A DNA stretch of 64,000 bases from a virus (IMGVR_UViG_3300045988_142996:3868-67867), one strand, 5' to 3'; counted from the first letter of the stretch, positions 288 to 64,000 are shown. The notes: generated from the letters alone by a model not told the origin. Translations and numbers: made by a program.

Positions 288-375
288 AGAATAGCTTTTC
301 AAACAGAAAAAGCCCGGGTTGACCGAGCTTTTGAGTGAAAATGGCAAATTTATACAATGATTGAAGGAGGTTTAC

Positions 376-1605
376 ATGCTAAAACTCTGTCCAGAGTGTT
401 GTCTACAAGTGAGCGATAAGGCAGCAACTTGTCCTCATTGTGGTTACCCGCTCGACCAAACACCCGTTCCAGTCCTGCAGCGCCCCGTTCCACAAAAGCG
501 GCGAATGCATCTTCCGAACGGTTTCGGCAGCATCACTGAAGTCCGAACGAAAAATCTTCGTAACCCGTTTTATGTCACTGTTCCTGCCGGAAAAACTCCA
601 GAAGGCCGTCCCATTCGTAAGCCGCTCAAGCCCAAATCATCTTTTAAGACATATAACGAGGCTTATCAAGCACTGGTGGAATATCACCGAAATCCTTATG
701 ACCCAGAAACGATCATCAGCTTTCAGGAGCTATATGATCTCTGGTATCAAGAGCGGGAAAAAGCTAATCCCGATAAGACAACGCTTTGCCGCTATCGGAG
801 CCTTTGGCGGTATTCCGCGCCAATCAAAGATATTCCAGTACGCAATCTTCGTGTCCACCATTTAAAAGAATGCGTACTTCATGGAACCGCGGTGAATAAT
901 GGAGCAACCGTCGAAATTTCGCCAATCACTGGTTCAAAGCTAAAATTCATGTACAACCAGCTGTTTGATTATGCTGTTGAAAATGAATACGTAGATAAGA
1001 ACATCGCCCGCATGTTTAATGTCAACTGCGAATTTGAAACGCAGCATGAGCACTTCCCTTATACTGATGAAGAGATCAATATTCTCTGGAAAAATGTAGG
1101 AATCTGCGACGTTGCTGACCTGATCCTCATTCAGTGCTATTCTGGCTGGCGGCCGCAGGAGTTAGTCAAGTTAAAAATAGCAGACGTTCATCTTGACAAG
1201 CGTTGGATTCAGGGTGGTATGAAAACAAAAAATGGCAAAAATCGCCAGGTGCCTATTCATATGAAAATTATGCCGCTCATTCAGCATCGCTATAAGGAAG
1301 CGCAGAGTATCGGTAGCGAATATCTTTTTAATCATCATTACAAGCGCTGGCCCGACAGGTGGACTAAATACTCCTATGATTACCTTTCCGATTCGTTTAT
1401 CGAAACGCTCCCCTTGTTGGGCATCAGCCCAGAGCATCGTGGACATGATGGCCGCGTGCATTTTGTCACGTTGGCCAAGAAAGCGGAGATGGACGAATAT
1501 GCTCTCAAGCGAATCGTTGGTCATAAAATCGATGACCTTACCGAGCGTGTTTACACTAGGCGTACCGTTGAATGGCTCATCAGCGAGCTTGATAAGATTC
1601 CCTGA
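376..1605 (+). CDS. int: Tyrosine recombinase (phage integrase) with an N-terminal zinc ribbon and an arm-type DNA-binding domain
   Basis: CPECC...CPHCG zinc ribbon; GWRPQEL (box I Arg); HDGRVHF (HxxR); GHKIDDLTERVYT (His and Tyr nucleophile). GGAGG lies 5 nt before the ATG at 376; the ORF-track start at 361 is a TTG. Confidence 0.9.
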   Translation: MLKLCPECCLQVSDKAATCPHCGYPLDQTPVPVLQRPVPQKRRMHLPNGFGSITEVRTKNLRNPFYVTVPAGKTPEGRPIRKPLKPKSSFKTYNEAYQALVEYHRNPYDPETIISFQELYDLWYQEREKANPDKTTLCRYRSLWRYSAPIKDIPVRNLRVHHLKECVLHGTAVNNGATVEISPITGSKLKFMYNQLFDYAVENEYVDKNIARMFNVNCEFETQHEHFPYTDEEINILWKNVGICDVADLILIQCYSGWRPQELVKLKIADVHLDKRWIQGGMKTKNGKNRQVPIHMKIMPLIQHRYKEAQSIGSEYLFNHHYKRWPDRWTKYSYDYLSDSFIETLPLLGISPEHRGHDGRVHFVTLAKKAEMDEYALKRIVGHKIDDLTERVYTRRTVEWLISELDKIP

Positions 1606-7195: not shown

Positions 7196-10100
7196 TCACC
7201 TTGCCCTTCTTGCGGCTCTTGCGCCGAGCCCTGCATCAATCCACCCGATGGTGGTTTTGCCGTCCACTACCACGCTCATGCCGTGGATACTGTCCGCCAC
7301 GCCGTCCATCCGTCCGCCCAGTGCGTTCACCGCGTTCAACAGGTCGGCATTGGACTGGGCTTTCACTCCATTTTGAAGTTCTGCCGCAGCATCCACCTGA
7401 GCCGCCAGACGTTTCGTTGTGCCGCCGTCCAGACTGACATTGTCAAAGGCCCGGTTGATGATATCGGTGCTCTCGTCCACGTCGGTCAGGTCCACTACCG
7501 GGCTGATGGTGGGCGTGTACTCGTATTCATCATCTGTCACCCGCTTGATGGCACCAACCGCAGCGATCGCAATATTCGTAGCATCGTCGGTCATGTCCTT
7601 GATGGCGTCGTCCACGGTGTCCTTGCCGTCGGTAATGCCGTCCGCAAAGTCCTTGTCAAGGTCAGAACCGGCGTCCTTTGCCGCGTCGGACTGCTTTTTA
7701 TCCTTTGCATGCTTGATGGCAATGGCCGCAATGCCGCCCAGCAGCGCCAAAATGATGCCTCCCGCCAGAATAAAGGGCCAGATTTCCGGCAGCAGCCCGA
7801 TCAGACTGCTGAATGCCCCGCCAATGGTTCCAACCACGCCGGTTGCCACTTCAGAGATTCCGCCTGCTCCAGCCAGTAATCCGGTGATCTCGCCGCCTGC
7901 GTTCTGCACGATGCCTACGATCTGCCCAAAGCCCTGTTCCAATGCAGGCAGTGCTTTGTCAAAGAGCTGCCCGACGCCTTCCAGCATCTTCTTGCCCTCG
8001 TTGGTGCCCATAAAGTCCAGCGCCGCCGTCACAGCGGACACTGCCGCACCGGCCCAGTCTCCCTGCAGGGCCGAGACGATAGCTGAGGTGAACTCAGTTC
8101 CGATCTCAATGCCCTCGTCGCTGAAGGCCGCGCCAAATGCATTGGACAGGCCGGTCTTCACGTTTTCCGGCAGGTTCTGCGATGCCTTGTTCCATGCCTT
8201 GGTCAGACCCTCGCTCAGGGGTTTCCAGTTCTTCTGCACGGCATAGGCAAGTTTCACCACCATGGATTTGCCTTCATCTTCCAGATTAAAGGCCTCGGCC
8301 AGGTTGGATGCAAAGCCCAGGAAGGCGCTCTGGGAGGAGAGCAGGTTGTCCTGTGCGGCTTCTTTCTCCTCCCGGGTTGCATTCTCTGAGTTGAGGATCT
8401 CCTGATACTTCGCCGTCTCCTTGAGCTGGAAGTTCATGTTCTTCAGGGCCGTCACCACGCCCAGAATGGACGTCGTCGTGCCCTGGAACTGCGCCTTCTT
8501 TGCCTGCTCGCTGTCTTTGCCGTATTCCTCCACGGCAGACTTGTAGGCATCCTCCCGCTGAGAGAGGTCGCCGTCGCTGTACACCGTGTTCAGGATGTCC
8601 ATGCGGCTCTGCATCCGGCTCTGGGCAGTCGAAATGGCATCGATCTGTGCGTCGATCAGGTTCAGTTCCTGCTGTGCCAGATCATTTTGAAGTTCCTGTG
8701 CCTCGGTGCGGGCGTCCAGCAGATCGTTCCAGGCTTCCATGGTGCGCATGTCTTCTTCGCCATACTGAGCCTTCAGGGCGTCATACTGCTCCTGCGCTTT
8801 GGCCAGCTTTTTCTCCTTGATGGCCAGTTCCGCCGTCATGTACTCGGTTTCCCGGTTGATCTTGTCGGTTTGGGTGGCTGTTTTGTCGTTCTGTGCCGTC
8901 CACAGGCCATATTCCTTTTCCAGCGTGTCGAGGTCGGTGTCGTAGCGCTTCGTCACGTCGTCAAAGAGGCCCACATACTGCTCTGCCTTCAGGTCGGCCA
9001 GACTGGTCTTTTCCTCCAGCAGGTCGAGGTAGGCCTCTTTGGTCTCGGTCTTATCCTTGCCCCAGCGCTTGGCCAGCTCGTCGTACTTCGCCTGTGCAAT
9101 GGCCACCCGGTCGGTCTGGTGCTGGATGTCCGCTGCGGCATTCTCGGTCTTCTTGGCCAGCAGCTCGTCCACCGAGGCACTGTACTGGTTTTCCTTCAGC
9201 CACAGGTCGTACTCTTCGTCTACCGTGTCCTTCAGGGTCTTGTTGGCCGCCAGCTGGGTCTTGTACTTTTCCGTGATCTGTTCGGCTACGGTCTTCTGCT
9301 TGGTGGAAGATTTGGTTTTCTTCTTGCCCGTACCGGTTCCGCCGGAGCCATCAGTGTTTCCAGAATCCGCATCAGGATTTTCCCGGTTTCCGTACAGCGA
9401 CGTCCAGTCGAAGCCATCTGCTTTCTTTTTTGCAGGAATTGCGTTCAAACCGGAATCGCGAAGGTCCATCTGTAACTGGCGTCGTTCCTGCGGAGTCAGA
9501 GACGGATCATTTAGTGCATTGCTTAGCTCCTCCTGGAGACCTTCTTTATAGGCAGCACCAGTTCTCCTGCCAACATCTCTTGCTTCATCCTCAACATCTG
9601 ATGCCTTATTTTCAAGTCCTTCGATTACGCCACCATCGTAATACTCACCATTTTCGATTCCGTCATCTGCATTAGAATGGATACCAACTTCATCTCGGAA
9701 AGCATTGTCCATACTCCGAGCGAGAATGGACATCGCCGTTTCTGCGGCAGGGGTTCCATTTTGAATTCCCTCAACAAGACCGCTGACAATGTAACCTGCA
9801 TTTTCGATGGCAAGTCTAGCGGGAGAAGCAATCCCCCAATAGTCATTGAATGCATCATTTTGGGAATCAGCCAGCTCCTCAACAGCATCGACTGCTTTAT
9901 CTCCTTCTTTTTCGATGCCTTTGGCGTAGCCTTCAGCGACATACTCGCCACTGCTTTGAGGATCAACACCATGTTCACTCTTGAATGCACTCTGAATCTT
10001 TTCGCCAATCCACTTGCCAAGCGCTCCGAATTTCGACCCGATATAATTGAATATTGAGCCAATAACAGAATCAATTGTTTCCAAAATCTTAGGAGTACAA

Positions 10101-30198: not shown

Positions 30199-30399
30199 TC
30201 ATTCCTCATGGTCCATTACACCTTCGGATGCAATGGCTGCATTTGCCCAGAACAATGCCTCATCCAACTTCGTCAGCGCCAGACTGCGCTCACGGCTCGG
30301 TGCAATACACTGCACCATGTGTTCTGCCTCCTGCATCTTCAGCCGCAGGTTCGTGCTGTATGCTGCTTCCGCAACATTAAACTTTCGTACCGGATACAT
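30199..30399 (-). CDS. Small helical protein with an SRERSLALTKLDEALFWANAAI motif (possibly Acb2/Tad1-hairpin-like)
   Basis: GGAGG 7 nt before the ATG at 30399; 66 aa. The motif resembles the conserved R-x-x-SLA-x-TKLEEA-x-(M/F)WA helix I recall from that family. Unverified. Confidence 0.5.
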   Translation of the reverse strand: MYPVRKFNVAEAAYSTNLRLKMQEAEHMVQCIAPSRERSLALTKLDEALFWANAAIASEGVMDHEE

Positions 30400-30400
30400 C

Positions 30401-30853
30401 TCATTTCCTCCAAGGACAGGTATCGCCCGGGCGTCTCTCTGCAAATGCAGGCTTTAAGATCGTGTCATCTCCGTAGTGGATGGCTTTGTGAGTGCGGTCG
30501 CTCACGCAGATCACATTCTCCGGATCGAGCAGCGCATCTGTATGACCAATCACGTCTTCTTTCGTCAGCGGGTTCAGATGGTGGATAATAATGCGCGGCC
30601 GGACGGGTTTGCCGTTTTGTATCACCCAATCTGTGATCTCGCGGTCAGGACAGCCAAGGTCACATCCCGCATCCCGTACAATGATCTTGTCCCGGAACTG
30701 CCGCCATTCTCTCGACTGGTAAAAGCTCTGGTTCAGATATCGGTCAAAGCCGAATGTGTCATAGCCCACCGTTCCATGCAACTGCAGGTAATGGAACCGA
30801 TCATCAAATGTCTGTAAGCGGATGAGCTCTGAGTATCTTTTAAGTGTACTCAT
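30401..30853 (-). CDS. HNH endonuclease (packaging-associated)
   Basis: ...RIIIHHLNPLTKEDV...DRTHKAIH... is an H-N-H pattern. It sits next to the putative small terminase gene. ATG at 30853. Confidence 0.75.
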   Translation of the reverse strand: MSTLKRYSELIRLQTFDDRFHYLQLHGTVGYDTFGFDRYLNQSFYQSREWRQFRDKIIVRDAGCDLGCPDREITDWVIQNGKPVRPRIIIHHLNPLTKEDVIGHTDALLDPENVICVSDRTHKAIHYGDDTILKPAFAERRPGDTCPWRK

Positions 30854-31181
30854 CGGGTTCTTCCTCATCCTGCCCGTTGTAGATACGCATTGCCCGGATG
30901 GCCTCTGCATACATTTCTTCGGTATTCTTGGCTGCCTGCAGCGCTTCGGTCTTTGCACGCAGGAGCTTGTTTTCTTCTTCCAGTTTTTCTTTTTCCAGCT
31001 CGGACTTGAACGTAGCCAGTTTCAGAAAATGTGTCGTCTCTGCTGAAGATGCAGTGCCTTCCCGCAGCCGCTTCTCCACCAGATCCATCGCCAGAGATAT
31101 CATCTGGTTTTCTCGTGCTTCTGGAGACAACGCCGGCCGCATTCCGACATCCTCGCCAGATGAGACCTTTCTTGTCTTCAT
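30840..31181 (-). CDS. Putative terminase small subunit / DNA-binding coiled-coil protein
   Basis: 113 aa. ...REGTASSAETTHFLKLATFKSELEKEKLEEENKLLRAKTEAL.... It is the first gene after a 410-bp noncoding region and is adjacent to the HNH. Function inferred from position. Confidence 0.35.
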   Translation of the reverse strand: MKTRKVSSGEDVGMRPALSPEARENQMISLAMDLVEKRLREGTASSAETTHFLKLATFKSELEKEKLEEENKLLRAKTEALQAAKNTEEMYAEAIRAMRIYNGQDEEEPDEYT

Positions 31182-31265
31182 GGGTTTTCATTCCTTTCGC
31201 AAGGGTTTTGGGCCGAACTGCCCTTGATTCTGTTTTGTTATGGCGGCTTCTACAGCACTTATAGA

Positions 31266-31422
31266 GCTTTTGTAAGGGCTTATGAGAGCTGCTTGAGAAA
31301 ATCTGTGAAAACGATGCCTGCAAAGCATTGAAAGGAGAAATTTTGTTAAGCAAAAGGAGGTTAAAGTCTGAGAACCCATCATAGGAGGTTGTGTCCACTA
31401 TCTCATAAGCCCTTACAAAAGC
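31266..31422. repeat. Perfect 22-bp inverted repeat flanking a 113-bp segment
   Basis: gcttttgtaagggcttatgaga (31266..31287) is the reverse complement of tctcataagcccttacaaaagc (31401..31422). Confidence 0.95.
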
Positions 31423-31543
31423 CCTGATTGCTCAGCAATCAAAGCCTTTTATCCCCGGAGATTGATGCTGAGCCTTGGTCTACACCCCAAAGCCCAAATA
31501 TCAATTTTACCCCCGGGGAAATATTAAAGACCGGCGCGATTTA

Positions 31544-31575
31544 GGGAGGGGGTGTGTTTTTCGGGACCCCCTCCC
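31544..31575 (-). terminator. GC-rich 10-bp stem-loop downstream of 31593..31862 (possible terminator or packaging-site element)
   Basis: gggagggggt-12 nt-accccctccc. No clear U-tract follows on either strand. Confidence 0.35.
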
Positions 31576-31592: not shown

Positions 31593-31862
31593 TTACGCCG
31601 CAGTCGTGTCATTTTCTGCATCGGGGAGGGTCTTTTTGACCTTCCGGTACAGGTTTAAAGGATCATCACGAATGATCTGATCGATTGTACGCTCAATTTC
31701 ATAGGCGTTTTCGTTATCCGTGAGCTGATCCGAGGTATAAGAGAGCCGTGCGAGGAGTCCACAGGAGTTATAACCGTGGTCGCAGTCAAAACGATACCAC
31801 TGATCGAACTGGTCGTGCGGATCGTAAGGATTATCGACCGTGGTAATGAAACAACGAACCAT
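31593..31862 (-). CDS. Hypothetical protein
   Basis: 89-aa ORF (MVRCFITTVDNPYDPHDQFDQWYRFDCDHGYN...) directly after the polymerase-like gene. Confidence 0.6.
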   Translation of the reverse strand: MVRCFITTVDNPYDPHDQFDQWYRFDCDHGYNSCGLLARLSYTSDQLTDNENAYEIERTIDQIIRDDPLNLYRKVKKTLPDAENDTTAA

Positions 31863-31883: not shown

Positions 31884-34646
31884 TTATTTCTTCAGTGCAT
31901 CATAAATCGTGGATTTCGGAACATTACAGGCTTCAGCAACTTCGGCATAGCTGTAACCCATGTCAAGCATTGCTCGTGCTTTGCTCAATTTGGCATTAGA
32001 AAGCGTTGTCGATGCTTTCGGCATTGCGCGTTTGATGATTTCAGAAGAATCAGAACTGTTCAGAAACTTCGTCAACATCGAATCCGAAATTGCATGATTC
32101 TGAACAGCTTCCCATTCCTTGTCCGTAAAGACGATCTTGGAGTTCCGACCGCTTGCACCAACAGAATCTCGTGCACGCTGCATCTCAACAGCAGAGATCT
32201 TCTTGATCTCTTTCTTGTCGGCTTTGCGATCAAGGCCTTGTGCTTCGATTTTTGCATTGATGTTGGCGTTTGCAATAATCATGGCACGCCGTTCTTTTGG
32301 CTTGTTGGTCAGAACTGCCTGATACTTTGCTTTCAAGGACTCAACCTCTGCCGCATACTTCTTGGCCGCTGCCGGATCACGCCGGATGCCCTTCATATTG
32401 ACGGCTTCCTTGCGTGCCTGATTAGTCAGAGCCTTCAGGCCATTGGCAAAGTCTGCGTACAACTCCTCCTGCTTTGTGCCAGAGGACAAGGTATGGACAT
32501 CTTTGATCATAGAGATGCGACTTACCTCATCTTCAGCCACATGCACATTACCCTTCTCGTCCTTGTAGGTACGGCCACTCTCCTTGTAGATGAGTTCGCC
32601 GGTCTCCTTGTCGATACGTGTGCTGCCACGACGCTCAGGAACACGGACGGTCTGCTTGCGACGGGACAGCAGCGTGGATGCACCACCGTACTTCGTATTG
32701 CCGTCTTCATCCACCCGGATCTGGTACTTCTGCTTCAGCTCCTGGATGCCGTTTTCACGCTCAGACCTCTTGTAGTCCAGGCCATGCTTCTCAGCATCAA
32801 TGACAACCATAGAGTGGCGCACTGCTCGCTCCAGATCTTCTGGCGTTGCACCACGCAAGGTCATGTCCGTAATCAGGTTCGAGATAATTCCCATCTCTTT
32901 CTGCTTCTCATCCTTCTTCATGAGACGAACATTGTTGGGGTTGCCTTCCGGAACAGAGTAGGCAGTCTTGGGGTCGAAGTTCTTCAGACCAGGAAGCGGA
33001 TTCGTTGAGTTGATACGAACCTTATCGCTCATCGGGATAGCCATAACGGTATCGCCATCAAAGTCTGCACCAGACAGCCGCTCTGCGACCTTCGCGTTGA
33101 TGCCGATGGCGTCCTGAATCGCGCCCAAATTGCGCTTACCACTGAGGTTCTTGTTGTTGACAGTCACAACGGGAATCTCAAATGTGCCTGCATGCGGATA
33201 ACGAATCAGTGCAAGCTGTGTTCCGTTCTCGTATGTAGGGCAATAGGCTTCTTTCTCACTGATGTTATTCAGCGGAAGGATGACCTTCGTTGACTGACCG
33301 GGAAATGCAGACGCTTTCAGGGTCATGGACGTGCCTTCACACTGGTCAGCAAAGTCCATCAGCATTTTTTTCTTGACAGTCGGGTTCGTGTAATGCATGA
33401 TCTCATCGTACTCGGCCTTATAGTCAGCCATAGTGAGGTCAAGCTGGCGTTTGATGAGCGGAACGGGCTGCTTGGACAGGAACTGCGAAGAAACATTCTT
33501 CGACATCGTGTCCCAGTCGCCTTCTTCTTTCAGCTTATTGATGGGAGAAAGATGCTCTTTGCCGTCGGCACCAATATAAGTGCTCTGGCCGTTCGCTTTG
33601 ATGGCTGCACCGAACGGGTTATCCGGATCATCCTTGATGGGCTTGAAGACCTTCATCTTGGGTGTACCAGAAGGCTTATTGGTATTAAAGACAATATCAA
33701 CACCCTTCGGCAGGTCATCAGAATATACGGCCATGCCCTTCAGGTAGTGGCTGTCATCCACCATGATACGAACCTGCGCATAATGGGAATTGCCCAAATC
33801 CAAATCAGGAACGCCGCGGCGAATCTCCATAACACCGTCTTTTGCAAGGCCGCCTTCGTCGCCATAGCGCACCGCCACACGATCAGAGCTCATGCTCACA
33901 GGACGCTGTAGTTTTTTGAAGCTGTCTCCACCATCGTCGGAATGATAGTCGCCAAGGGACTGAATCTCACTCTGATGCTTGTAGGCATAGCTCTGATCGA
34001 ACTCAGGCTTGCCCAGAACGGTGATATTTGTCTGCTGACGAGGATTGGTCGGCTGCTTGATGCCGACACCATAGCGCTTATAGCCGTATTCCGCTTCCAG
34101 AATATAAACAGCCTCATCCAGCTTGCCTTCCGAGACGCCAAGCGTAAGGTTGGAACCTTCGGAAATATCAATCATGCCTTTCTTGTCAACTTCCTTCTTC
34201 AGGACGTCAGCAATCTTTTCAGCCTGATCTTTCTTGGTTCCAACGCCATTCTGGTACATGGAGCGGACCGTCGATTCGGACAGGTTCAACTTCTGGCCGA
34301 TTTCAGTCCAGCCTTTGCCATCTTCTTTCAGTGCACGAATCTGATCCCACTGCAGCGCTTTACGGTCATGGCCGGCTTTGGCTCTTGCCACACGAAACTC
34401 GCTGGCACCCAGCTTGTACTCATCGGGCAGAGTCGCATTGATGGCCTCAAGGATCTCATTTTCACTCATGCCCTGAGTCTTCAGCTTATCGATTCGAGAA
34501 ATAAAATCGCCCGAATGCTGGTAAGGCGTCTCGCCACTACCCCAGGGATAACGGCCAGAATGACGCTTGGTGCCGTAATGCTCCAGCGTATCGCCGCCGT
34601 ATTCAATACCAAAATAGCTCGAAATATCTTTTTCAACTGGATTCAT
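31884..34646 (-). CDS. YonO-like single-subunit two-barrel RNA polymerase candidate with HTH modules
   Basis: LIRYPHAGTFEIPVV...ERLSGADFDGDTVMAIPM is an RxP strand followed about 45 aa later by the DxDGD metal loop (compare beta-prime NADFDGDQMAVH). HTH-like GKGWTEIGQKLNLSESTVRSMY and C-terminal GYSYAEVAEACNVPKSTIYDALKK. Confidence 0.6.
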   Translation of the reverse strand: MNPVEKDISSYFGIEYGGDTLEHYGTKRHSGRYPWGSGETPYQHSGDFISRIDKLKTQGMSENEILEAINATLPDEYKLGASEFRVARAKAGHDRKALQWDQIRALKEDGKGWTEIGQKLNLSESTVRSMYQNGVGTKKDQAEKIADVLKKEVDKKGMIDISEGSNLTLGVSEGKLDEAVYILEAEYGYKRYGVGIKQPTNPRQQTNITVLGKPEFDQSYAYKHQSEIQSLGDYHSDDGGDSFKKLQRPVSMSSDRVAVRYGDEGGLAKDGVMEIRRGVPDLDLGNSHYAQVRIMVDDSHYLKGMAVYSDDLPKGVDIVFNTNKPSGTPKMKVFKPIKDDPDNPFGAAIKANGQSTYIGADGKEHLSPINKLKEEGDWDTMSKNVSSQFLSKQPVPLIKRQLDLTMADYKAEYDEIMHYTNPTVKKKMLMDFADQCEGTSMTLKASAFPGQSTKVILPLNNISEKEAYCPTYENGTQLALIRYPHAGTFEIPVVTVNNKNLSGKRNLGAIQDAIGINAKVAERLSGADFDGDTVMAIPMSDKVRINSTNPLPGLKNFDPKTAYSVPEGNPNNVRLMKKDEKQKEMGIISNLITDMTLRGATPEDLERAVRHSMVVIDAEKHGLDYKRSERENGIQELKQKYQIRVDEDGNTKYGGASTLLSRRKQTVRVPERRGSTRIDKETGELIYKESGRTYKDEKGNVHVAEDEVSRISMIKDVHTLSSGTKQEELYADFANGLKALTNQARKEAVNMKGIRRDPAAAKKYAAEVESLKAKYQAVLTNKPKERRAMIIANANINAKIEAQGLDRKADKKEIKKISAVEMQRARDSVGASGRNSKIVFTDKEWEAVQNHAISDSMLTKFLNSSDSSEIIKRAMPKASTTLSNAKLSKARAMLDMGYSYAEVAEACNVPKSTIYDALKK

Positions 34647-34647
34647 G

Positions 34648-35202
34648 TCAGCACCCCATCTTCAGCTTTGCAATAATCGGATCAAACTCACGGATCTTCT
34701 CCATCACAACGTTGACATCATCCGCCTCAGGTGTGGCGATAATAATATCATCAGACTGATAGATGCGATTCTCGATCTGAATTTTCTCCGGCTTCACACG
34801 ATATTCCAGACAGAACAGAGCATCGTAAATCAGCAGCTGTTCCATATGCGCCGGAATCACCCCCGTTTTAAGGTCGTGGATCCGAAGAATATCATCGCGG
34901 AAACAAATCGAGTCTGCTGTCCCAAAGCAATTCTCAGAATAATAGAGCACCTGCTCAGGGGTCATGCGGAATCCAATGGCGTCGTTGACATAACTGTTCA
35001 ACGTCTTCTTCGAGCGCGGCAGCTTCTGGCCAAGAGAAATGCACTTTGCTGCAAACTCGTGCAGTTCGGTGCCTTTCTGCGCAGCCATGAAGCTGGTATA
35101 GGCCGCTGCAATTTTCTCGGGATCGTAATTGATCCAATGATACTTACTAGCGCCGAGAAATGCGTGTTGGCCTGTCAGACGCGAATGATCGTTGAAGGTC
35201 AT
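34648..35202 (-). CDS. PD-(D/E)XK nuclease (Cas4/RecB-like exonuclease)
   Basis: GTADSICF...ILRIHDLKTG gives a D...D-x-K motif. 184 aa, in the replication/recombination block. Confidence 0.6.
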   Translation of the reverse strand: MTFNDHSRLTGQHAFLGASKYHWINYDPEKIAAAYTSFMAAQKGTELHEFAAKCISLGQKLPRSKKTLNSYVNDAIGFRMTPEQVLYYSENCFGTADSICFRDDILRIHDLKTGVIPAHMEQLLIYDALFCLEYRVKPEKIQIENRIYQSDDIIIATPEADDVNVVMEKIREFDPIIAKLKMGC

Positions 35203-35464
35203 CCAAAATCTCCTCCTTATTTTCCGGGTAAATGAACGCAGCGTAGCTCATCCGGTTCATGAGATCAACGTAGTAATCTTGATTCGGACGATGCGGTGCA
35301 TTTGCAGAGCGTTTGCCTTCAAGCGCTGCCCACTTGTCTCCGCACAAAACCAAGAGATCAGGCATTCCCTGAATCTCGTTTGGATCAATGTGCAGAACAA
35401 TGCAGCCCGGAAAGCGCTCTTTGAGTTCTCTTACCAGGTTTGTTTTGAATCGGTTCTCCAGCAT
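35147..35464 (-). CDS. VRR-NUC / Holliday-junction-resolvase-like nuclease
   Basis: GMPDLLVLCGDKWAALEGKR gives a D...E-x-K motif. GGAGGAG RBS before the ATG at 35464. Confidence 0.55.
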   Translation of the reverse strand: MLENRFKTNLVRELKERFPGCIVLHIDPNEIQGMPDLLVLCGDKWAALEGKRSANAPHRPNQDYYVDLMNRMSYAAFIYPENKEEILDDLQRSFASDRPTRISRR

Positions 35465-35516
35465 AAAATCTCCTCCAAAAAGAAAAAGAGCAGCGTGCAA
35501 AGACACACTCTCTCCT

Positions 35517-36080: not shown

Positions 36081-36135
36081 GATTTTCGCCTTGAACTTTT
36101 CGTTAATTTGGGTCGTTTTTCGTCTCTGCCCAAAA

Positions 36136-36433
36136 GCCCACTTTTATTTTCTACTTATATATATTTTTTTCATTTTTAATAAATAAATAAGAAAAAAAGT
36201 GGGCAAGTGGGCAAAATGGCTTTTTCTTCCAAAAATATAACGTATTTACGCAATATTTTATCCAAAATTCGTGCCCACTTTTGGTTTTAAAAGTGGGCAG
36301 AAAGTGGGCTTTTGGCCAGAAATTGTGAATATTTTGTGAACAAACGGTCATTTTCGTCTATTCTAGAATAGAATTTCACGTCTCTGACACACAAAACCCA
36401 AAACAAAAGTGGGCACGAATTTCAAAAGTGGGC
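36136..36433. repeat. Cluster of eight AAGTGGGC repeats (six direct, two inverted) next to an AT-rich tract: iteron/operator array
   Basis: Copies at 36197, 36205, 36291, 36302, 36407 and 36426 (direct) and 36136 and 36273 (complement), mostly in the context AAAAGTGGGCA. AT-rich 36141..36196. No credible ORF. Confidence 0.85.
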
Positions 36434-36470
36434 AAAAGAAAAAGGCCCTGAATTTTACTCCAGAGCCTTT
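36434..36470 (-). terminator. Rho-independent terminator (minus strand)
   Basis: Minus strand reads AAAGGCTCTG-GAGTAAAATT-CAGGGCCTTT followed by TTCTTTT, downstream of 36476..36823. Confidence 0.65.
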
Positions 36471-36891: not shown

Positions 36892-37230
36892 TTATTTCTC
36901 CAAACCCATCAAATATTCCGCACTCCGATAGACAAAATATCGCGGTGCAGGCGGTCGAACAAGTGCTTTTCTCGTGACATCTTCCATGCCAGATTGCTTT
37001 GTCCGCCACCCAATCGAGATGCAATGCCGGATATTCCGCTCCATTCTTTCCGGATTTGCCGCGTATTTTTGCCCGAGTTGTTCGTAATAAATGTACATGT
37101 GCGCCGGCTGTTCATCCTCCAGCAAAGCATCCGTGACCATGTCGATCAGCTCACCAAGCGGATTAAATCCCATCAACCATGGTTCAATGCCGACGCTTTT
37201 CAGATAATCATAGGTTCGAGGTCGCATCAA
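36892..37230 (-). CDS. Spo0A C-terminal-domain-like DNA-binding protein
   Basis: ...YEQLGQKYAANPERMERNIRHCISIGWRT... parallels the Spo0A_C signature (...tt.s.VERAIRHAIEvAW...). There is no receiver domain. Confidence 0.6.
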   Translation of the reverse strand: MMRPRTYDYLKSVGIEPWLMGFNPLGELIDMVTDALLEDEQPAHMYIYYEQLGQKYAANPERMERNIRHCISIGWRTKQSGMEDVTRKALVRPPAPRYFVYRSAEYLMGLEK

Positions 37231-58389: not shown

Positions 58390-59565
58390 ATGGTCTGTGT
58401 CGGAATTGATGTTGCCAAAGATAAGCATGACTGTTGCATTCTCGATTCGGAAGGAACGACCCTTGTCGATTGCTTTACCATTCCCAACAACATGGATGGT
58501 TTCAAAAGTCTGCTACAAACAATCCAAGACTGTTCTCAAAAATCAGACAAAATAAAAGTAGGGCTTGAGGCTACCGGACATTATAGCTACAACATCCTTG
58601 GGTTTCTTCTTGACAATGATCTGCCCGTCTATGTCATGAATCCCTTGCATACCAACCTGTATCGAAAGAGCCTCAGTCTTCGCAAAACTAAAACCGATCG
58701 TGTGGATGCAAAAACGATTGCAACTATGCTGTTGTCCGATGTAGACCTCAAGTCCTACACAGATACAGCATATCACAACGAAGAACTAAAGTCACTCACG
58801 AGATACCGATTTGATAAAGTTCAGGAACGCGCTAAACTAAAGCAGTCGGTGTCCAGATTGGTTACAATCCTGTTTCCGGAATTGGAACAGCTTGTTTCGT
58901 CTATCCACGGCACTTCAATCTACGCACTTCTCAGTGAGTATCCCGGTGCAAAGCAGATTTCAGAAGCTCATCTGACCAGATTAGCTAATATTCTCGTGAA
59001 AACATCCAGAGGCCATTACCGAAAAGATAAAGCTACTCATATCCGAGATGCAGCCAGAATATCCATTGGTTCTGTTATGCCTGCTAAGTCTTTGGAATTA
59101 AAGCACACCATTAAGCTCATTCAAGAACTTACCTCCGAAATCAATGAAATTGAAGATGCCATTCGGAAAATCATGGATGAATTGAAACCGCCGATCCTTT
59201 CGATTCCCGGAATGGGATTTCATTCTGCTGCGATGATTCTTGCAGAGGTAGGGGATTTTTCGAATTTTAACTCTCCTGACAAAGTTTTGGCTTATGCTGG
59301 ATGTTCTCCCTCCACATACCAGTCAGGAAAACTCACAAACTGCTATGCACACATGGAAAAGCGTGGCTCTCGTTATCTTCGATACGCTCTTTACACTGCA
59401 ACCAAATACGTCTGTTACTGGAATCCTGTTTTTACTGAATACCTTACCAAAAAGCAAGCTGAAGGCAAGCACTACAATGTTGCCCTATCTCATGCCACAA
59501 AGAAACTCGTACGACTGATTTACGCTTTGCAGAAGTCCGGTAAAGCATATCTTGCCGTCACTTGA
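58390..59565 (+). CDS. IS110-family (DEDD / RuvC-like) transposase
   Basis: MVCVGIDVAKDKHDCCILD... (DEDD_Tnp_IS110 N-terminus) and ...IPGMGFHSAAMILAEVGDFSNFNSPDKVLAYAGCSPSTYQSGK (Transposase_20 domain). Confidence 0.9.
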   Translation: MVCVGIDVAKDKHDCCILDSEGTTLVDCFTIPNNMDGFKSLLQTIQDCSQKSDKIKVGLEATGHYSYNILGFLLDNDLPVYVMNPLHTNLYRKSLSLRKTKTDRVDAKTIATMLLSDVDLKSYTDTAYHNEELKSLTRYRFDKVQERAKLKQSVSRLVTILFPELEQLVSSIHGTSIYALLSEYPGAKQISEAHLTRLANILVKTSRGHYRKDKATHIRDAARISIGSVMPAKSLELKHTIKLIQELTSEINEIEDAIRKIMDELKPPILSIPGMGFHSAAMILAEVGDFSNFNSPDKVLAYAGCSPSTYQSGKLTNCYAHMEKRGSRYLRYALYTATKYVCYWNPVFTEYLTKKQAEGKHYNVALSHATKKLVRLIYALQKSGKAYLAVT

Positions 59566-62016: not shown

Positions 62017-62261
62017 TCTTCGCCCCTCCATTCGTAGCCTGTCTGCTCGAAAAGAAGCTTCGGCGAAATATAATAATTGATTCTCCCGTATTTTGAGCTC
62101 ATTTCCTTGAGATCGGTCACGCGCCTGCCGTTTCTCGTGGCCTCCCCAATCGGCAGCCATCCGGCAATGATACCAGCTCTCACCCATGCCGGATCACGTC
62201 CGTAGACCTTTGCTGCCACCCTCACTGGAACAGCACCCAATTTTAACCTAGCTTTGTCCAT
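62013..62261 (-). CDS. HTH DNA-binding protein (excisionase/Xis-like or early regulator), first gene of the minus-strand array
   Basis: 82 aa. ...VPVRVAAKVYGRDPAWVRAGIIAGWLPIGEA... is an HTH_17/Xis-like pattern. Divergent from the integrase. Confidence 0.45.
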   Translation of the reverse strand: MDKARLKLGAVPVRVAAKVYGRDPAWVRAGIIAGWLPIGEATRNGRRVTDLKEMSSKYGRINYYISPKLLFEQTGYEWRGEE

Positions 62262-64000
62262 ACTATCGTACTCCTTTTATGTTACTCTAAGCATATCCAG
62301 ATACGTCTTAGGCATGAAAAGATAATAATGGTAAAACCGGTCGACTGCGTGCTGTATTTTATTTAGTTTGCGGCGCAGCATTGACAAGTCTGTGAGAATG
62401 GTTTAACCTAGAATAGCTTTTCAAACAGAAAAAGCCCGGGTTGACCGAGCTTTTGAGTGAAAATGGCAAATTTATACAATGATTGAAGGAGGTTTACATG
62501 CTAAAACTCTGTCCAGAGTGTTGTCTACAAGTGAGCGATAAGGCAGCAACTTGTCCTCATTGTGGTTACCCGCTCGACCAAACACCCGTTCCAGTCCTGC
62601 AGCGCCCCGTTCCACAAAAGCGGCGAATGCATCTTCCGAACGGTTTCGGCAGCATCACTGAAGTCCGAACGAAAAATCTTCGTAACCCGTTTTATGTCAC
62701 TGTTCCTGCCGGAAAAACTCCAGAAGGCCGTCCCATTCGTAAGCCGCTCAAGCCCAAATCATCTTTTAAGACATATAACGAGGCTTATCAAGCACTGGTG
62801 GAATATCACCGAAATCCTTATGACCCAGAAACGATCATCAGCTTTCAGGAGCTATATGATCTCTGGTATCAAGAGCGGGAAAAAGCTAATCCCGATAAGA
62901 CAACGCTTTGCCGCTATCGGAGCCTTTGGCGGTATTCCGCGCCAATCAAAGATATTCCAGTACGCAATCTTCGTGTCCACCATTTAAAAGAATGCGTACT
63001 TCATGGAACCGCGGTGAATAATGGAGCAACCGTCGAAATTTCGCCAATCACTGGTTCAAAGCTAAAATTCATGTACAACCAGCTGTTTGATTATGCTGTT
63101 GAAAATGAATACGTAGATAAGAACATCGCCCGCATGTTTAATGTCAACTGCGAATTTGAAACGCAGCATGAGCACTTCCCTTATACTGATGAAGAGATCA
63201 ATATTCTCTGGAAAAATGTAGGAATCTGCGACGTTGCTGACCTGATCCTCATTCAGTGCTATTCTGGCTGGCGGCCGCAGGAGTTAGTCAAGTTAAAAAT
63301 AGCAGACGTTCATCTTGACAAGCGTTGGATTCAGGGTGGTATGAAAACAAAAAATGGCAAAAATCGCCAGGTGCCTATTCATATGAAAATTATGCCGCTC
63401 ATTCAGCATCGCTATAAGGAAGCGCAGAGTATCGGTAGCGAATATCTTTTTAATCATCATTACAAGCGCTGGCCCGACAGGTGGACTAAATACTCCTATG
63501 ATTACCTTTCCGATTCGTTTATCGAAACGCTCCCCTTGTTGGGCATCAGCCCAGAGCATCGTGGACATGATGGCCGCGTGCATTTTGTCACGTTGGCCAA
63601 GAAAGCGGAGATGGACGAATATGCTCTCAAGCGAATCGTTGGTCATAAAATCGATGACCTTACCGAGCGTGTTTACACTAGGCGTACCGTTGAATGGCTC
63701 ATCAGCGAGCTTGATAAGATTCCCTGATGTTCTAGCACCAATCCAGCACCGGGTCAAAATATTACAATTCGAGCTACGTTTTCTTCCATATATTTCCATT
63801 TATAGTTATGCACTTTTCATTCACGATTTTTCTTTTTTAAAATGCAGAAAGTTCCAGTCGGTTCGTGCATTTTTGCGTCAAAACGTAAAAAAGAGCCGTC
63901 CTCCCGATTCCTCGAGAGAACAGCTCCATGGTATTGGCTTTATAAAAATCAGATAGAAATGGTGTTGCAGACGTCGATCAGGACGGGGTCGAGGGTCTTG
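62123..64000. repeat. Right copy of the 1,878-bp terminal direct repeat
   Basis: Identical to 1..1878. Confidence 0.97.
62498..63727 (+). CDS. int: Integrase (the same gene as 376..1605, seen again because of the wrap-around)
   Basis: Identical sequence at offset 62122. Confidence 0.9.
   Translation: MLKLCPECCLQVSDKAATCPHCGYPLDQTPVPVLQRPVPQKRRMHLPNGFGSITEVRTKNLRNPFYVTVPAGKTPEGRPIRKPLKPKSSFKTYNEAYQALVEYHRNPYDPETIISFQELYDLWYQEREKANPDKTTLCRYRSLWRYSAPIKDIPVRNLRVHHLKECVLHGTAVNNGATVEISPITGSKLKFMYNQLFDYAVENEYVDKNIARMFNVNCEFETQHEHFPYTDEEINILWKNVGICDVADLILIQCYSGWRPQELVKLKIADVHLDKRWIQGGMKTKNGKNRQVPIHMKIMPLIQHRYKEAQSIGSEYLFNHHYKRWPDRWTKYSYDYLSDSFIETLPLLGISPEHRGHDGRVHFVTLAKKAEMDEYALKRIVGHKIDDLTERVYTRRTVEWLISELDKIP

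Follow-up and report, generated by a model that had tools for sequence, protein, structure and literature searches.

A probable single-chain two-barrel RNA polymerase with helix-turn-helix modules at both termini, encoded beside a predicted cos site in a temperate siphophage genome related to Faecalibacterium phage FP_oengus

YonO of the temperate siphovirus SPbeta is a processive DNA-dependent RNA polymerase (RNAP) that starts at a single site when it transcribes the late operon of its phage (Forrest et al. 2017, PMC5467207). It belongs to the two-barrel polymerases, for which Ruprich-Robert and Thuriaux (2010, PMC2919709) listed eight universally shared residues, and the same authors counted a protein of Lactococcus phage 1706 as one of five YonO-like families. 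Two Thermus phage proteins of this kind, P23-45 gp64 (8F72) and P74-26 gp62 (8F5M), are single-subunit two-barrel DNA-dependent RNAPs; gp64, of about 600 amino acids (aa), is absent from virions and transcribes phage genes directly, serves the early genes of a lytic phage, and is described in a paper that names no helix-turn-helix (HTH). For the family of the phage 1706 protein, Koert et al. (bioRxiv 10.1101/842583) reported homology to RNA-dependent RNA polymerases (RdRPs), a DxDGD motif and HTH domains at both termini, and they proposed the protein as a signature gene of a supergroup of actinophages and Firmicutes phages. Here we describe a member of this family encoded on 64,000 nucleotides (nt) of viral DNA (IMGVR_UViG_3300045988_142996:3868-67867; "the window" below always means this whole stretch), and we compare the protein, which is very probably a two-barrel (double-psi beta-barrel) RNAP, and its locus with YonO and with other relatives.

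GenBank annotation, PHROGs and two papers already cover the family, its homology to polymerases and the HTH domains at its termini. An earlier reading of the window, made from the bare sequence (the sequence-only reading), had supposed the HTH fusion to be undescribed, a supposition that the report of Koert et al. overturns. The FP_oengus homologue (AUV56548.1) has carried the name 'putative RNA polymerase' since its deposition in 2018. The RefSeq name of the family, 'RNA-dependent RNA polymerase', is probably a misnomer; the label was inherited from a Pfam family so named and not taken from an assay.

The gene and the parts of its product are as follows.

31884..34646, minus strand: polymerase gene, 920 aa, ATG start; PHROG 4291; phage 1706/FP_oengus/actinophage family
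34506..34598, minus strand: N-terminal hallmark peptide, aa 17-47, HYG..RHSGRYPWGSG..PYQH
34179..34505, minus strand: N-terminal helical region, aa 48-156, with two HTH-like units at aa 48-72 and 113-133
33522..33884, minus strand: first double-psi beta-barrel, beta-like, aa ~255-375, a beta-strand block in the model
33027..33299, minus strand: second, catalytic double-psi beta-barrel, beta-prime-like, aa ~450-540
32784..32915, minus strand: helical pair after the catalytic barrel, aa 578-621, with model helices at 578-597 and 602-621
31887..32123, minus strand: C-terminal pair of three-helix bundles, aa 842-920, the HTH last

The 920-aa open reading frame (ORF), its strand and its ATG start are as the sequence-only reading had given them. 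The product matches PHROG 4291 ('RNA-dependent RNA polymerase') from end to end (1180 bits, residues 19-919 of 920), is 77% identical to AUV56548.1 and shares 36-44% identity with actinophage and lactococcal members of the family; of 251 phage records, 249 align over 80% or more of the query. An exhaustive search of 1.84 billion cluster representatives returned 825 clusters at 50% identity with E <= 1e-30, most of which align from about residue 19 to 919. The gene family is present in 310 species-representative bacterial genomes, mostly of gut Clostridia, and in phages of Arthrobacter, Gordonia, Streptomyces and Lactococcus. Near-identical copies of the gene also lie on contigs binned as Bacteroides, Oxalobacter and Parabacteroides (loci L084, L085, L088, L090, L108 and L147), and these odd host bins are most likely mis-binned phage contigs in metagenome-assembled genomes. 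With its FP_oengus, phage 1706 and actinophage relatives the window protein shares full-length homology, a common architecture (N-terminal peptide, N-terminal HTH, two barrels, C-terminal HTH) and a common gene order (endonuclease, Cas4-like exonuclease, polymerase, small gene, genome end), and it differs from them in nothing of substance.

Searches by sequence see almost nothing of the polymerase core, whereas the fold shows it. An AlphaFold2 model built from an alignment of 98 of the 825 relatives has a mean pLDDT of 88 and a pTM of 0.80, and when it was compared with the PDB by Foldseek all 20 matches with E <= 1e-3 were two-barrel RNA polymerases. The top match is QDE-1 (PDB 2J7N, E 1.3e-9), followed by P74-26 gp62 (E 1.8e-7), P23-45 gp64 (E 3.2e-7) and RDR2 of maize and Arabidopsis (E 1.3e-6), with Rpb1-type subunits lower down, from Pol II, Pol IV and the RNAPs of archaea and of African swine fever virus; a search of the viral structure library BFVD agrees in returning two-barrel RNAPs. 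No relaxase, Ca-binding protein or other fold appeared among the significant matches in either library. The sequence-only reading had named as fatal to its call a fold that lacks double-psi barrels and has DFDGD in a loop of the Ca-binding kind, or a confident match to a non-polymerase family such as the relaxases; Pfam, the profile search of the PDB and the fold gave no signal of a relaxase or a Ca loop. QDE-1 and RDR2 (7W82) have the same order of barrels in one chain, at a sequence identity of only 10-12% and global TM-scores of about 0.27; in contrast to the window protein they are eukaryotic cellular enzymes that act on RNA or single-stranded DNA in silencing and have no HTH modules.

The string LIRYPHAGTFEIPVV has its first residue at aa 480, and the DFDGD loop starts at aa 528; the catalytic barrel holds R482-x-P484-H485 and D528-x-D530-G-D532. 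Between the two core strings quoted in the sequence-only reading the gap is 27 aa rather than the roughly 33 aa given there, and its figure of about 45 aa from R-x-P to the metal loop is close to the actual 46 residues (R482 to D528). The corresponding distance is 45 residues in QDE-1, which makes it 45-46 for the window protein and its eukaryotic counterparts, and members of the superfamily are expected to have it at about 35-46. The eight universal residues are, in QDE-1, D709, R738, K743, R962, P964, D1007, D1009 and D1011, with counterparts that include Rpb1 R446/P448 and Rpb2 K979/K987 and D837 (PMC2919709). Candidates for all eight are invariant or nearly so in the alignment used for the model, whose 98 homologues are each 42-58% identical to the query. 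R482, P484, H485, S525, G526, A527, D528, D530, G531 and D532 are invariant in 98/98. The first barrel contains D270, R293, K303-G304 and D317, of which R293, K303, G304 and D317 are likewise invariant and D270 is present in 97/98. R293 and K303 in the first beta-barrel block supply the conserved Lys/Arg of a second barrel for which the sequence-only reading had advised looking, and R293 would be the one-to-one match to one of the two basic residues of the beta-like barrel. Two candidates exist for the fourth Asp, namely D270, which stands in a D-G motif like YonO D249-G250, and D317. The helical pair at aa 578-621 carries the invariant residues M585, G586, N590, L591, D594, M595, D617, K620 and H621 and, judged by its position in the model, may be the bridge helix. 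Column identity is 0.6-0.75 at aa 241-640, 0.40-0.45 at aa 1-160 and 0.41-0.56 at aa 801-920.

Polymerase homology is also visible in parts of the family by profile. Pfam PF05183 (RdRP) matches 12 of 50 divergent family members at E <= 1e-3 (best 2.9e-6) and leaves the window protein unmatched, and Koert et al. (bioRxiv 10.1101/842583) obtained an HHpred match to Pfam RdRP with a probability of 95.7%. Sequence and family-profile searches of the window protein against PDB sequences found HTH domains only and no polymerase. Fold, invariant residues, motif matches to YonO and the RdRP hits together bear out the central call of the sequence-only reading, a single-subunit two-barrel RNAP with HTH modules, for which a Foldseek comparison of an AlphaFold model had been its own suggested check.

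How close the protein is to YonO is a separate matter. YonO was taken from the SPbeta record, its homologues were collected and a profile of 37 sequences was built from them. Comparison of the family profile with the single YonO sequence by hhalign found nothing, a forced global alignment of the two cores failed, and the only segment that aligned between the two profiles was the catalytic barrel, in the correct register: R482/P484/H485 fall on YonO R492/P494/H495, and D528/530/532 on D535/537/539 (local P 3e-4). Two further motifs are colinear with it. The K-G motif of the first barrel (hYlKGMAv, against PwiKGlLv in YonO) places K303-G304 on K271-G272 with a local P of 0.036, and a third motif, G-x-x-S-N-x-I-T (eMGiSNLITDM, against NIGeiSNnITKI; P 0.009), stands at the identical distance of 58 residues from the first catalytic Asp, on its C-terminal side, in this family and in YonO's. 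Some YonO homologues also match Pfam RdRP. The proteins are alike in being single-chain two-barrel polymerases of about 100 kDa with the motif order K-G, R-x-P-H, DxDGD, G-x-x-S-N-x-I-T, encoded in temperate siphoviruses directly upstream of the late structural operon. They differ in that YonO ends in a Cys4 zinc ribbon (C799, C802, C816 and C819 invariant) and has no HTH modules, whereas the window protein lacks a Cys cluster and has an HTH at that end. YonO also has no N-terminal hallmark peptide, as there is no SPbeta record among the matches to that peptide, and its activity and late-gene role are experimental, whereas in the window protein both are predicted. The label 'YonO-like' of the sequence-only reading holds at the level of the clade, by virtue of three colinear motifs, and fails at the level of the family, where there is no significant overall similarity and no zinc ribbon; the protein is in YonO's clade as a member of a sister family and is not a member of the YonO family.

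Both HTH segments that the sequence-only reading had pointed out, GKGWTEIGQKLNLSESTVRSMY at aa 110-131 and GYSYAEVAEACNVPKSTIYDALKK at aa 897-920, lie under Pfam HTH matches above curated cut-offs. Sigma70_r4_2 matches aa 109-133 with 28.6 bits (cut-off 25.7) and HTH_23 matches aa 891-919 with 34.9 bits (cut-off 24.6), each being found in 46 of the 50 divergent members, and aa 885-920 also match HTH_38, HTH_7 and HTH_28 above their Pfam cut-offs. Because the model has four helical bundles, at 48-72, 113-133, 842-874 and 884-919, each end probably carries two HTH units rather than one. When the N-terminal region was modelled alone it had a pLDDT of 89.5; the model superposes on the HTHs of GerE, NarL and LuxR at 0.7-2 A over about 35 residues and has further local matches to the HTH domains of IstA, DeoR and resolvase, and the isolated module gave no significant whole-domain fold match (best E 0.19). 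The HTH modules are of a generic type that binds double-stranded DNA (dsDNA). The likeness to sigma-70 region 4 consists in the N-terminal HTH reaching the Sigma70_r4_2 cut-off. Neither Pfam nor NCBIfam detected sigma region 2 or 3, and the NCBIfam sigma70-ECF model stayed below threshold (19.5 bits, cut-off 42.9). With an HTH of the region 4 type and no region 2, the protein shows no sign of being a sigma factor as such, and a role of the N-terminal HTH in promoter recognition is conjecture.

Ahead of the first HTH unit lies the hallmark peptide, which is the best-conserved stretch outside the active site, with G25, S30, G31 and R32 invariant among the homologues, and which is predicted to be disordered (pLDDT <50 at residues 13-45). 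Used as a lone query it recovered the same 250 phage records, at 57-90% identity and across phyla, and no phage protein outside the polymerase family was matched.

The genes around the polymerase were mapped by synteny with FP_oengus, a map of longest ORFs being useless because the G+C-rich genome carries long antisense ORFs. On the minus strand a primase-polymerase is followed by a small endonuclease, a Cas4-like exonuclease, the polymerase and an 89-aa gene, after which come a 410-nt non-coding stretch and the block of HNH, terminase and structural genes. The gene stands between the replication and nuclease genes on one side and the packaging and structural genes on the other, which is where the sequence-only reading had set it. 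The neighbours are listed here.

35147..35506, minus strand: small endonuclease gene of the same co-directional block; PHROG 93, 4.2e-14
34648..35202, minus strand: Cas4-like PD-(D/E)XK exonuclease gene; PHROG 3953, 5.7e-79; Pfam DUF2800
31593..31862, minus strand: conserved small gene, 89 aa; PHROG 4303, 1.3e-31
30840..31181, minus strand: 113-aa coiled-coil protein, first gene of the late block; PHROG 4259, 4.5e-42
30401..30958, minus strand: HNH endonuclease of the packaging block; PHROG 4321, 4.3e-60

The stop codon of the exonuclease gene lies 1 nt before the polymerase start codon, and an exonuclease of this type is also a neighbour in FP_oengus, Arthrobacter phage Mudcat and Gordonia phages. 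Mudcat gp92, named 'endonuclease', has the same position as the small endonuclease gene, and gp94 is the Mudcat orthologue of the polymerase. The 89-aa gene is syntenic with FP_oengus AUV56549, Mudcat gp95 and phage 1706 orf76 and is predicted to be the last gene before the genome end, a right-end synteny that the window shares with FP_oengus, Mudcat and 1706. Across the non-coding stretch the 113-aa gene is syntenic with FP_oengus AUV56550; Mudcat gp3 occupies the same place before the HNH gene, the likeness being one of position only, and a Pfam search with the 113-aa protein was without match, so that naming it a small terminase is a guess. The HNH endonuclease belongs to the conserved left-end module of Koert et al. 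(bioRxiv 10.1101/842583), and the true start of its gene is probably internal, because the hidden Markov model match begins at aa 40. The terminase, portal, capsid and tape-measure genes were recognised by synteny with FP_oengus.

Three conserved elements occupy the non-coding stretch downstream of the small gene.

31544..31575, minus strand: G+C-rich hairpin, GGGAGGGGGT..ACCCCCTCCC, a 10-bp perfect inverted repeat
31488..31543, minus strand: predicted cos site, a 55-nt block with homology to the joined termini of Mudcat and 1706
31263..31425, no strand assigned: inverted-repeat element with 25-nt arms at 31263-31287 and 31401-31425 and 113 nt between them

The hairpin comes directly after the 89-aa gene and directly before the cos block. 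It is kept in FP_oengus and has an evident counterpart in Mudcat, phage 1706 showing only a G/C-rich stretch in its place, and it may be an operon terminator or an accessory of cos. The 55-nt block is present once in the genome, is found in 79 of 81 related loci and, at about 95% identity to FP_oengus, is more conserved than coding DNA. It aligns with the real termini of Mudcat (...GCATCGCCGGCCT on one side of the junction, CCCCAAAAAATCCCCGGGGG on the other) and of phage 1706 (...GCATCGCCCTGTCT and CTCTAAAATTTCCCCG), and on account of this homology it is predicted to be a cos site, with the junction, read on the minus strand, predicted between 31528 and 31527. Placed in this way, the polymerase gene would be last but one at the packaged genome's right end, an arrangement seen in Mudcat and 1706, and once the cos ends join it lies directly upstream of the late block, much as yonO lies upstream of the late operon of SPbeta.

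The inverted repeat that the sequence-only reading had placed at 31266..31422 exists, with slightly longer arms. The arms are 96% complementary and occur once in the genome, and the element stops 82 nt short of the first late-block gene, on its upstream side. Of 81 close loci, 79 have both arms, and the two change in concert. More distant relatives were examined as 58 distinct divergent prophage loci whose polymerases are 48-56% identical, with coding stretches of equal length as controls: 41 of the 58 have, downstream of the polymerase, an inverted repeat whose arms measure 15 nt or more, against none and two of 58 in the two sets of controls. In these loci it is found 390-580 nt past the polymerase stop codon, its spans cluster at 115-135 nt, and its arm sequences are specific to the lineage. 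Clostridia prophages thus share an element of this form, of about 120 nt, directly upstream of their late block, and so does at least one actinophage, Mudcat, where it lies 500 nt inside the left end and only 38 nt before the first late-block gene, a placement which indicates that it tracks the late operon more than cos. It folds well as RNA (z -4.5). An Rfam search had no match in the downstream region, nor in the left ends of Mudcat and 1706, and the arm mismatches show no consistent G-U strand bias. A scan for sigma-70 promoters and terminators around the gene did no better than on shuffled sequence. We conclude that the repeat forms either a structured element under conservation or a pair of binding sites, and that it may act as RNA or as DNA; it could be cosB-like, or a leader or promoter of the late operon. 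It is not an oriT, the role floated for it in the sequence-only reading, for it lies close to cos, upstream of a late operon, and is conserved in phages with linear ends.

In SPbeta the untranslated leader between yonN and yonK (9185-9303 and 9409-9474 of the record) also has two features upstream of the YonO-dependent late operon. One match there is the Rfam DUF3800-VIII RNA, above its gathering score, and an inverted repeat with 16-nt arms and a span of 119 nt ends 33 nt before yonK. This repeat was not equated with the element of the window, since its geometry is similar but the leader also holds a different, known motif, the DUF3800-VIII RNA.

The explanation that we find best overall, and consider probable, is a two-barrel RNAP of the 1706/FP_oengus/actinophage family that is DNA-dependent and transcribes the late operon with the help of HTH binding. 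The narrower statement that its job is late-operon transcription with promoter recognition by the HTH modules is made tentatively, as a little less than an even call. A late-gene role is proposed because YonO and gp64 transcribe phage DNA and because the gene is upstream of the late block. The active site would be formed by the beta-like barrel (R293, K303 and either D270 or D317) facing the beta-prime-like barrel (R482-x-P484 and D528/D530/D532), and fused to this core are the conserved but disordered N-terminal peptide, the two N-terminal HTH units, a long coiled coil and the C-terminal HTH pair. The enzyme would be DNA-dependent, and the end of the early/replication block would be the source of its expression; once cos has been joined it would transcribe the adjacent co-directional late operon (HNH, terminase, head, tail and lysis genes) independently of the host RNAP, as YonO does in SPbeta, and the HTH modules would stand in for a sigma factor by binding DNA or the promoter. 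A rather unlikely extension is that the system is self-contained and sigma-independent, the HTH modules, and perhaps the N-terminal peptide, steering the polymerase to a site at the head of the late operon of which the long-stem element of about 120 nt would be a part or the leader. The literature searched contained no description of the element, nor of a role for the peptide.

Several observations weigh against the proposal of a late, DNA-dependent polymerase. In Pfam and NCBIfam the window protein has HTH matches only and no polymerase model, and the comparison of its family profile with the YonO profile (84 columns, E 0.019, probability 2.5%) is not significant alone. The best structural neighbours, QDE-1 and RDR2, are RNA-dependent or accept both templates, and for this reason template preference is unreadable from the fold. 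No candidate promoter motif recurs in the genome, the conserved non-coding elements by the gene being single-copy, and for one of these cos is the better explanation. Recognition helices in the HTHs are conserved across the family whereas the arms of the nearby inverted repeat are lineage-specific, which makes the arms an unlikely HTH target. GenBank calls the phage 1706 homologue, orf75, a 'structural protein', which would suit an injected early enzyme, and no biochemical or genetic work on the family was found in the literature searched. A scan for sigma-70 promoters and terminators around the gene did no better than on shuffled sequence.

The label of orf75 leads to an explanation that we think unlikely, in which the polymerase is packaged in the virion and injected with the DNA for transcription of the first genes, as are N4 virion RNAP (vRNAP), phi14:2 gp66 and the tape-measure-fused vRNAP of P23-45, with the disordered N-terminal peptide as a capsid-targeting or ejection signal. 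In phi14:2, which is a crAss-like phage, gp66 is a virion enzyme, and so are other single-subunit two-barrel phage RNAPs. The peptide is invariant, unstructured and found only in this polymerase family, and the gene is penultimate at the right end of the packaged genome, all of which speaks for this reading. However, the basis of the 'structural protein' label was not found in the literature searched, and the gene lies in the replication and nuclease module, not in the structural one. Many carriers are temperate prophages, for which an injected constitutive polymerase fits poorly with the lysogeny decision, and the described phage relatives point the other way, YonO being a late-gene enzyme and gp64 being absent from virions.

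A lower probability still, and one that makes it clearly unlikely, attaches to an enzyme that works on RNA or single-stranded templates, either as an RNA-dependent polymerase or as a maker of primers or of regulatory or anti-defence RNAs together with the adjacent nucleases. The rank of QDE-1 and RDR2 among the structural matches speaks for it, as do the HHpred RdRP match of Koert et al. and the PF05183 matches in 12 of 50 members, and a non-transcriptional role of YonO-like proteins was left open by Ruprich-Robert and Thuriaux (PMC2919709). Against it stand two experimentally tested phage members of the clade, YonO and P23-45 gp64, which are DNA-dependent, a dsDNA phage genome that has its own primase-polymerase, fused HTH domains of the dsDNA-binding type, and the origin of the 'RNA-dependent' name in a Pfam family name.

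That the protein does nothing beyond DNA-binding regulation, its barrel core having decayed and lost catalysis, would agree with most actinophage GenBank records, which say 'helix-turn-helix DNA-binding domain protein', and with HTHs as its sole Pfam matches. It is very improbable, however, since the core is more conserved than the HTH ends (0.6-0.75 against 0.40-0.56 column identity), which excludes a decayed, purely DNA-binding protein, and since the catalytic-site candidates are invariant in 98 divergent sequences, implying selection on catalysis. The MobL/MobA conjugative relaxase that the sequence-only reading had wished to see excluded, for which the inverted repeat at 31263-31425 would serve as the oriT nick site, is refuted by the fold and family searches: the case for it is the circumstantial one of a large HTH-bearing protein beside a long inverted repeat, but Pfam, PHROGs, NCBIfam, the PDB profile search and the fold matches contain no relaxase, the repeat lies in a cos-proximal region upstream of a late operon and is conserved across phages with defined linear ends, and the genes for terminase, portal, capsid and tape measure mark the window as the genome of a tailed phage.

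The genome itself is that of a temperate siphophage, as had been claimed, with a tyrosine integrase gene at 361..1605 of the window and, as nearest named relative, Faecalibacterium phage FP_oengus, a prophage-derived siphovirus with a tyrosine integrase. Positions 1-1878 of the window are identical to 62123-64000, and from these 1,878 bases it follows that the window covers a whole phage genome of 62,122 bp, circular or terminally redundant; it reads past the genome start and contains no host flanks. The phage is about 3.7 kb longer than FP_oengus.

Other observations on this genome concern genes and regions away from the polymerase. Upstream of the operon that contains the polymerase lies an A+T-rich intergenic region, 36125-36445, within which all seven exact genomic copies of GCCCACTTT are found, in both orientations (0.6 expected by chance), and where they make several inverted repeats. 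This region looks like an iteron or operator array and is a candidate origin or regulatory region. An inverted repeat at 36265-36422 was considered as a second copy of the element next to cos and was rejected, as it has the same geometry but a different motif within the iteron-like array. A 112-aa protein at 36892-37230 (minus strand) consists of a Spo0A C-terminal DNA-binding domain (E 1e-9, above cut-off), a free-standing phage version of the effector part of the master regulator of sporulation. In the late block an 81-aa ORF at 30199-30444 (minus strand) matches, with E 8.8e-12 and above the Pfam cut-off, the Acb2/Tad1 hairpin domain, whose fold is that of the sponges with which phages bind CBASS and Thoeris signalling nucleotides. 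A 391-aa IS110-family transposase at 58390-59565 (plus strand; DEDD_Tnp_IS110, 1e-46, and Transposase_20) lies inside the phage genome on the strand opposite to most genes and probably represents an insertion sequence.

The enzyme by which all cellular genomes are transcribed has minimal relatives in the single-chain two-barrel polymerases, and how YonO finds its promoter without sigma or general factors was still open according to Forrest et al. (2017, PMC5467207). The family to which the window protein belongs, with HTH modules fused to the polymerase, gives a handle on how single-chain polymerases locate promoters. The Faecalibacterium phage relative is present in up to 40% of human gut viromes, and the family is available in easily grown pairs of phage and host in Arthrobacter, Gordonia, Streptomyces and Lactococcus. 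Its interest lies in the biochemistry that is missing and in the possibility that recognition of the promoter is self-contained, through the HTH modules and the late-operon element.

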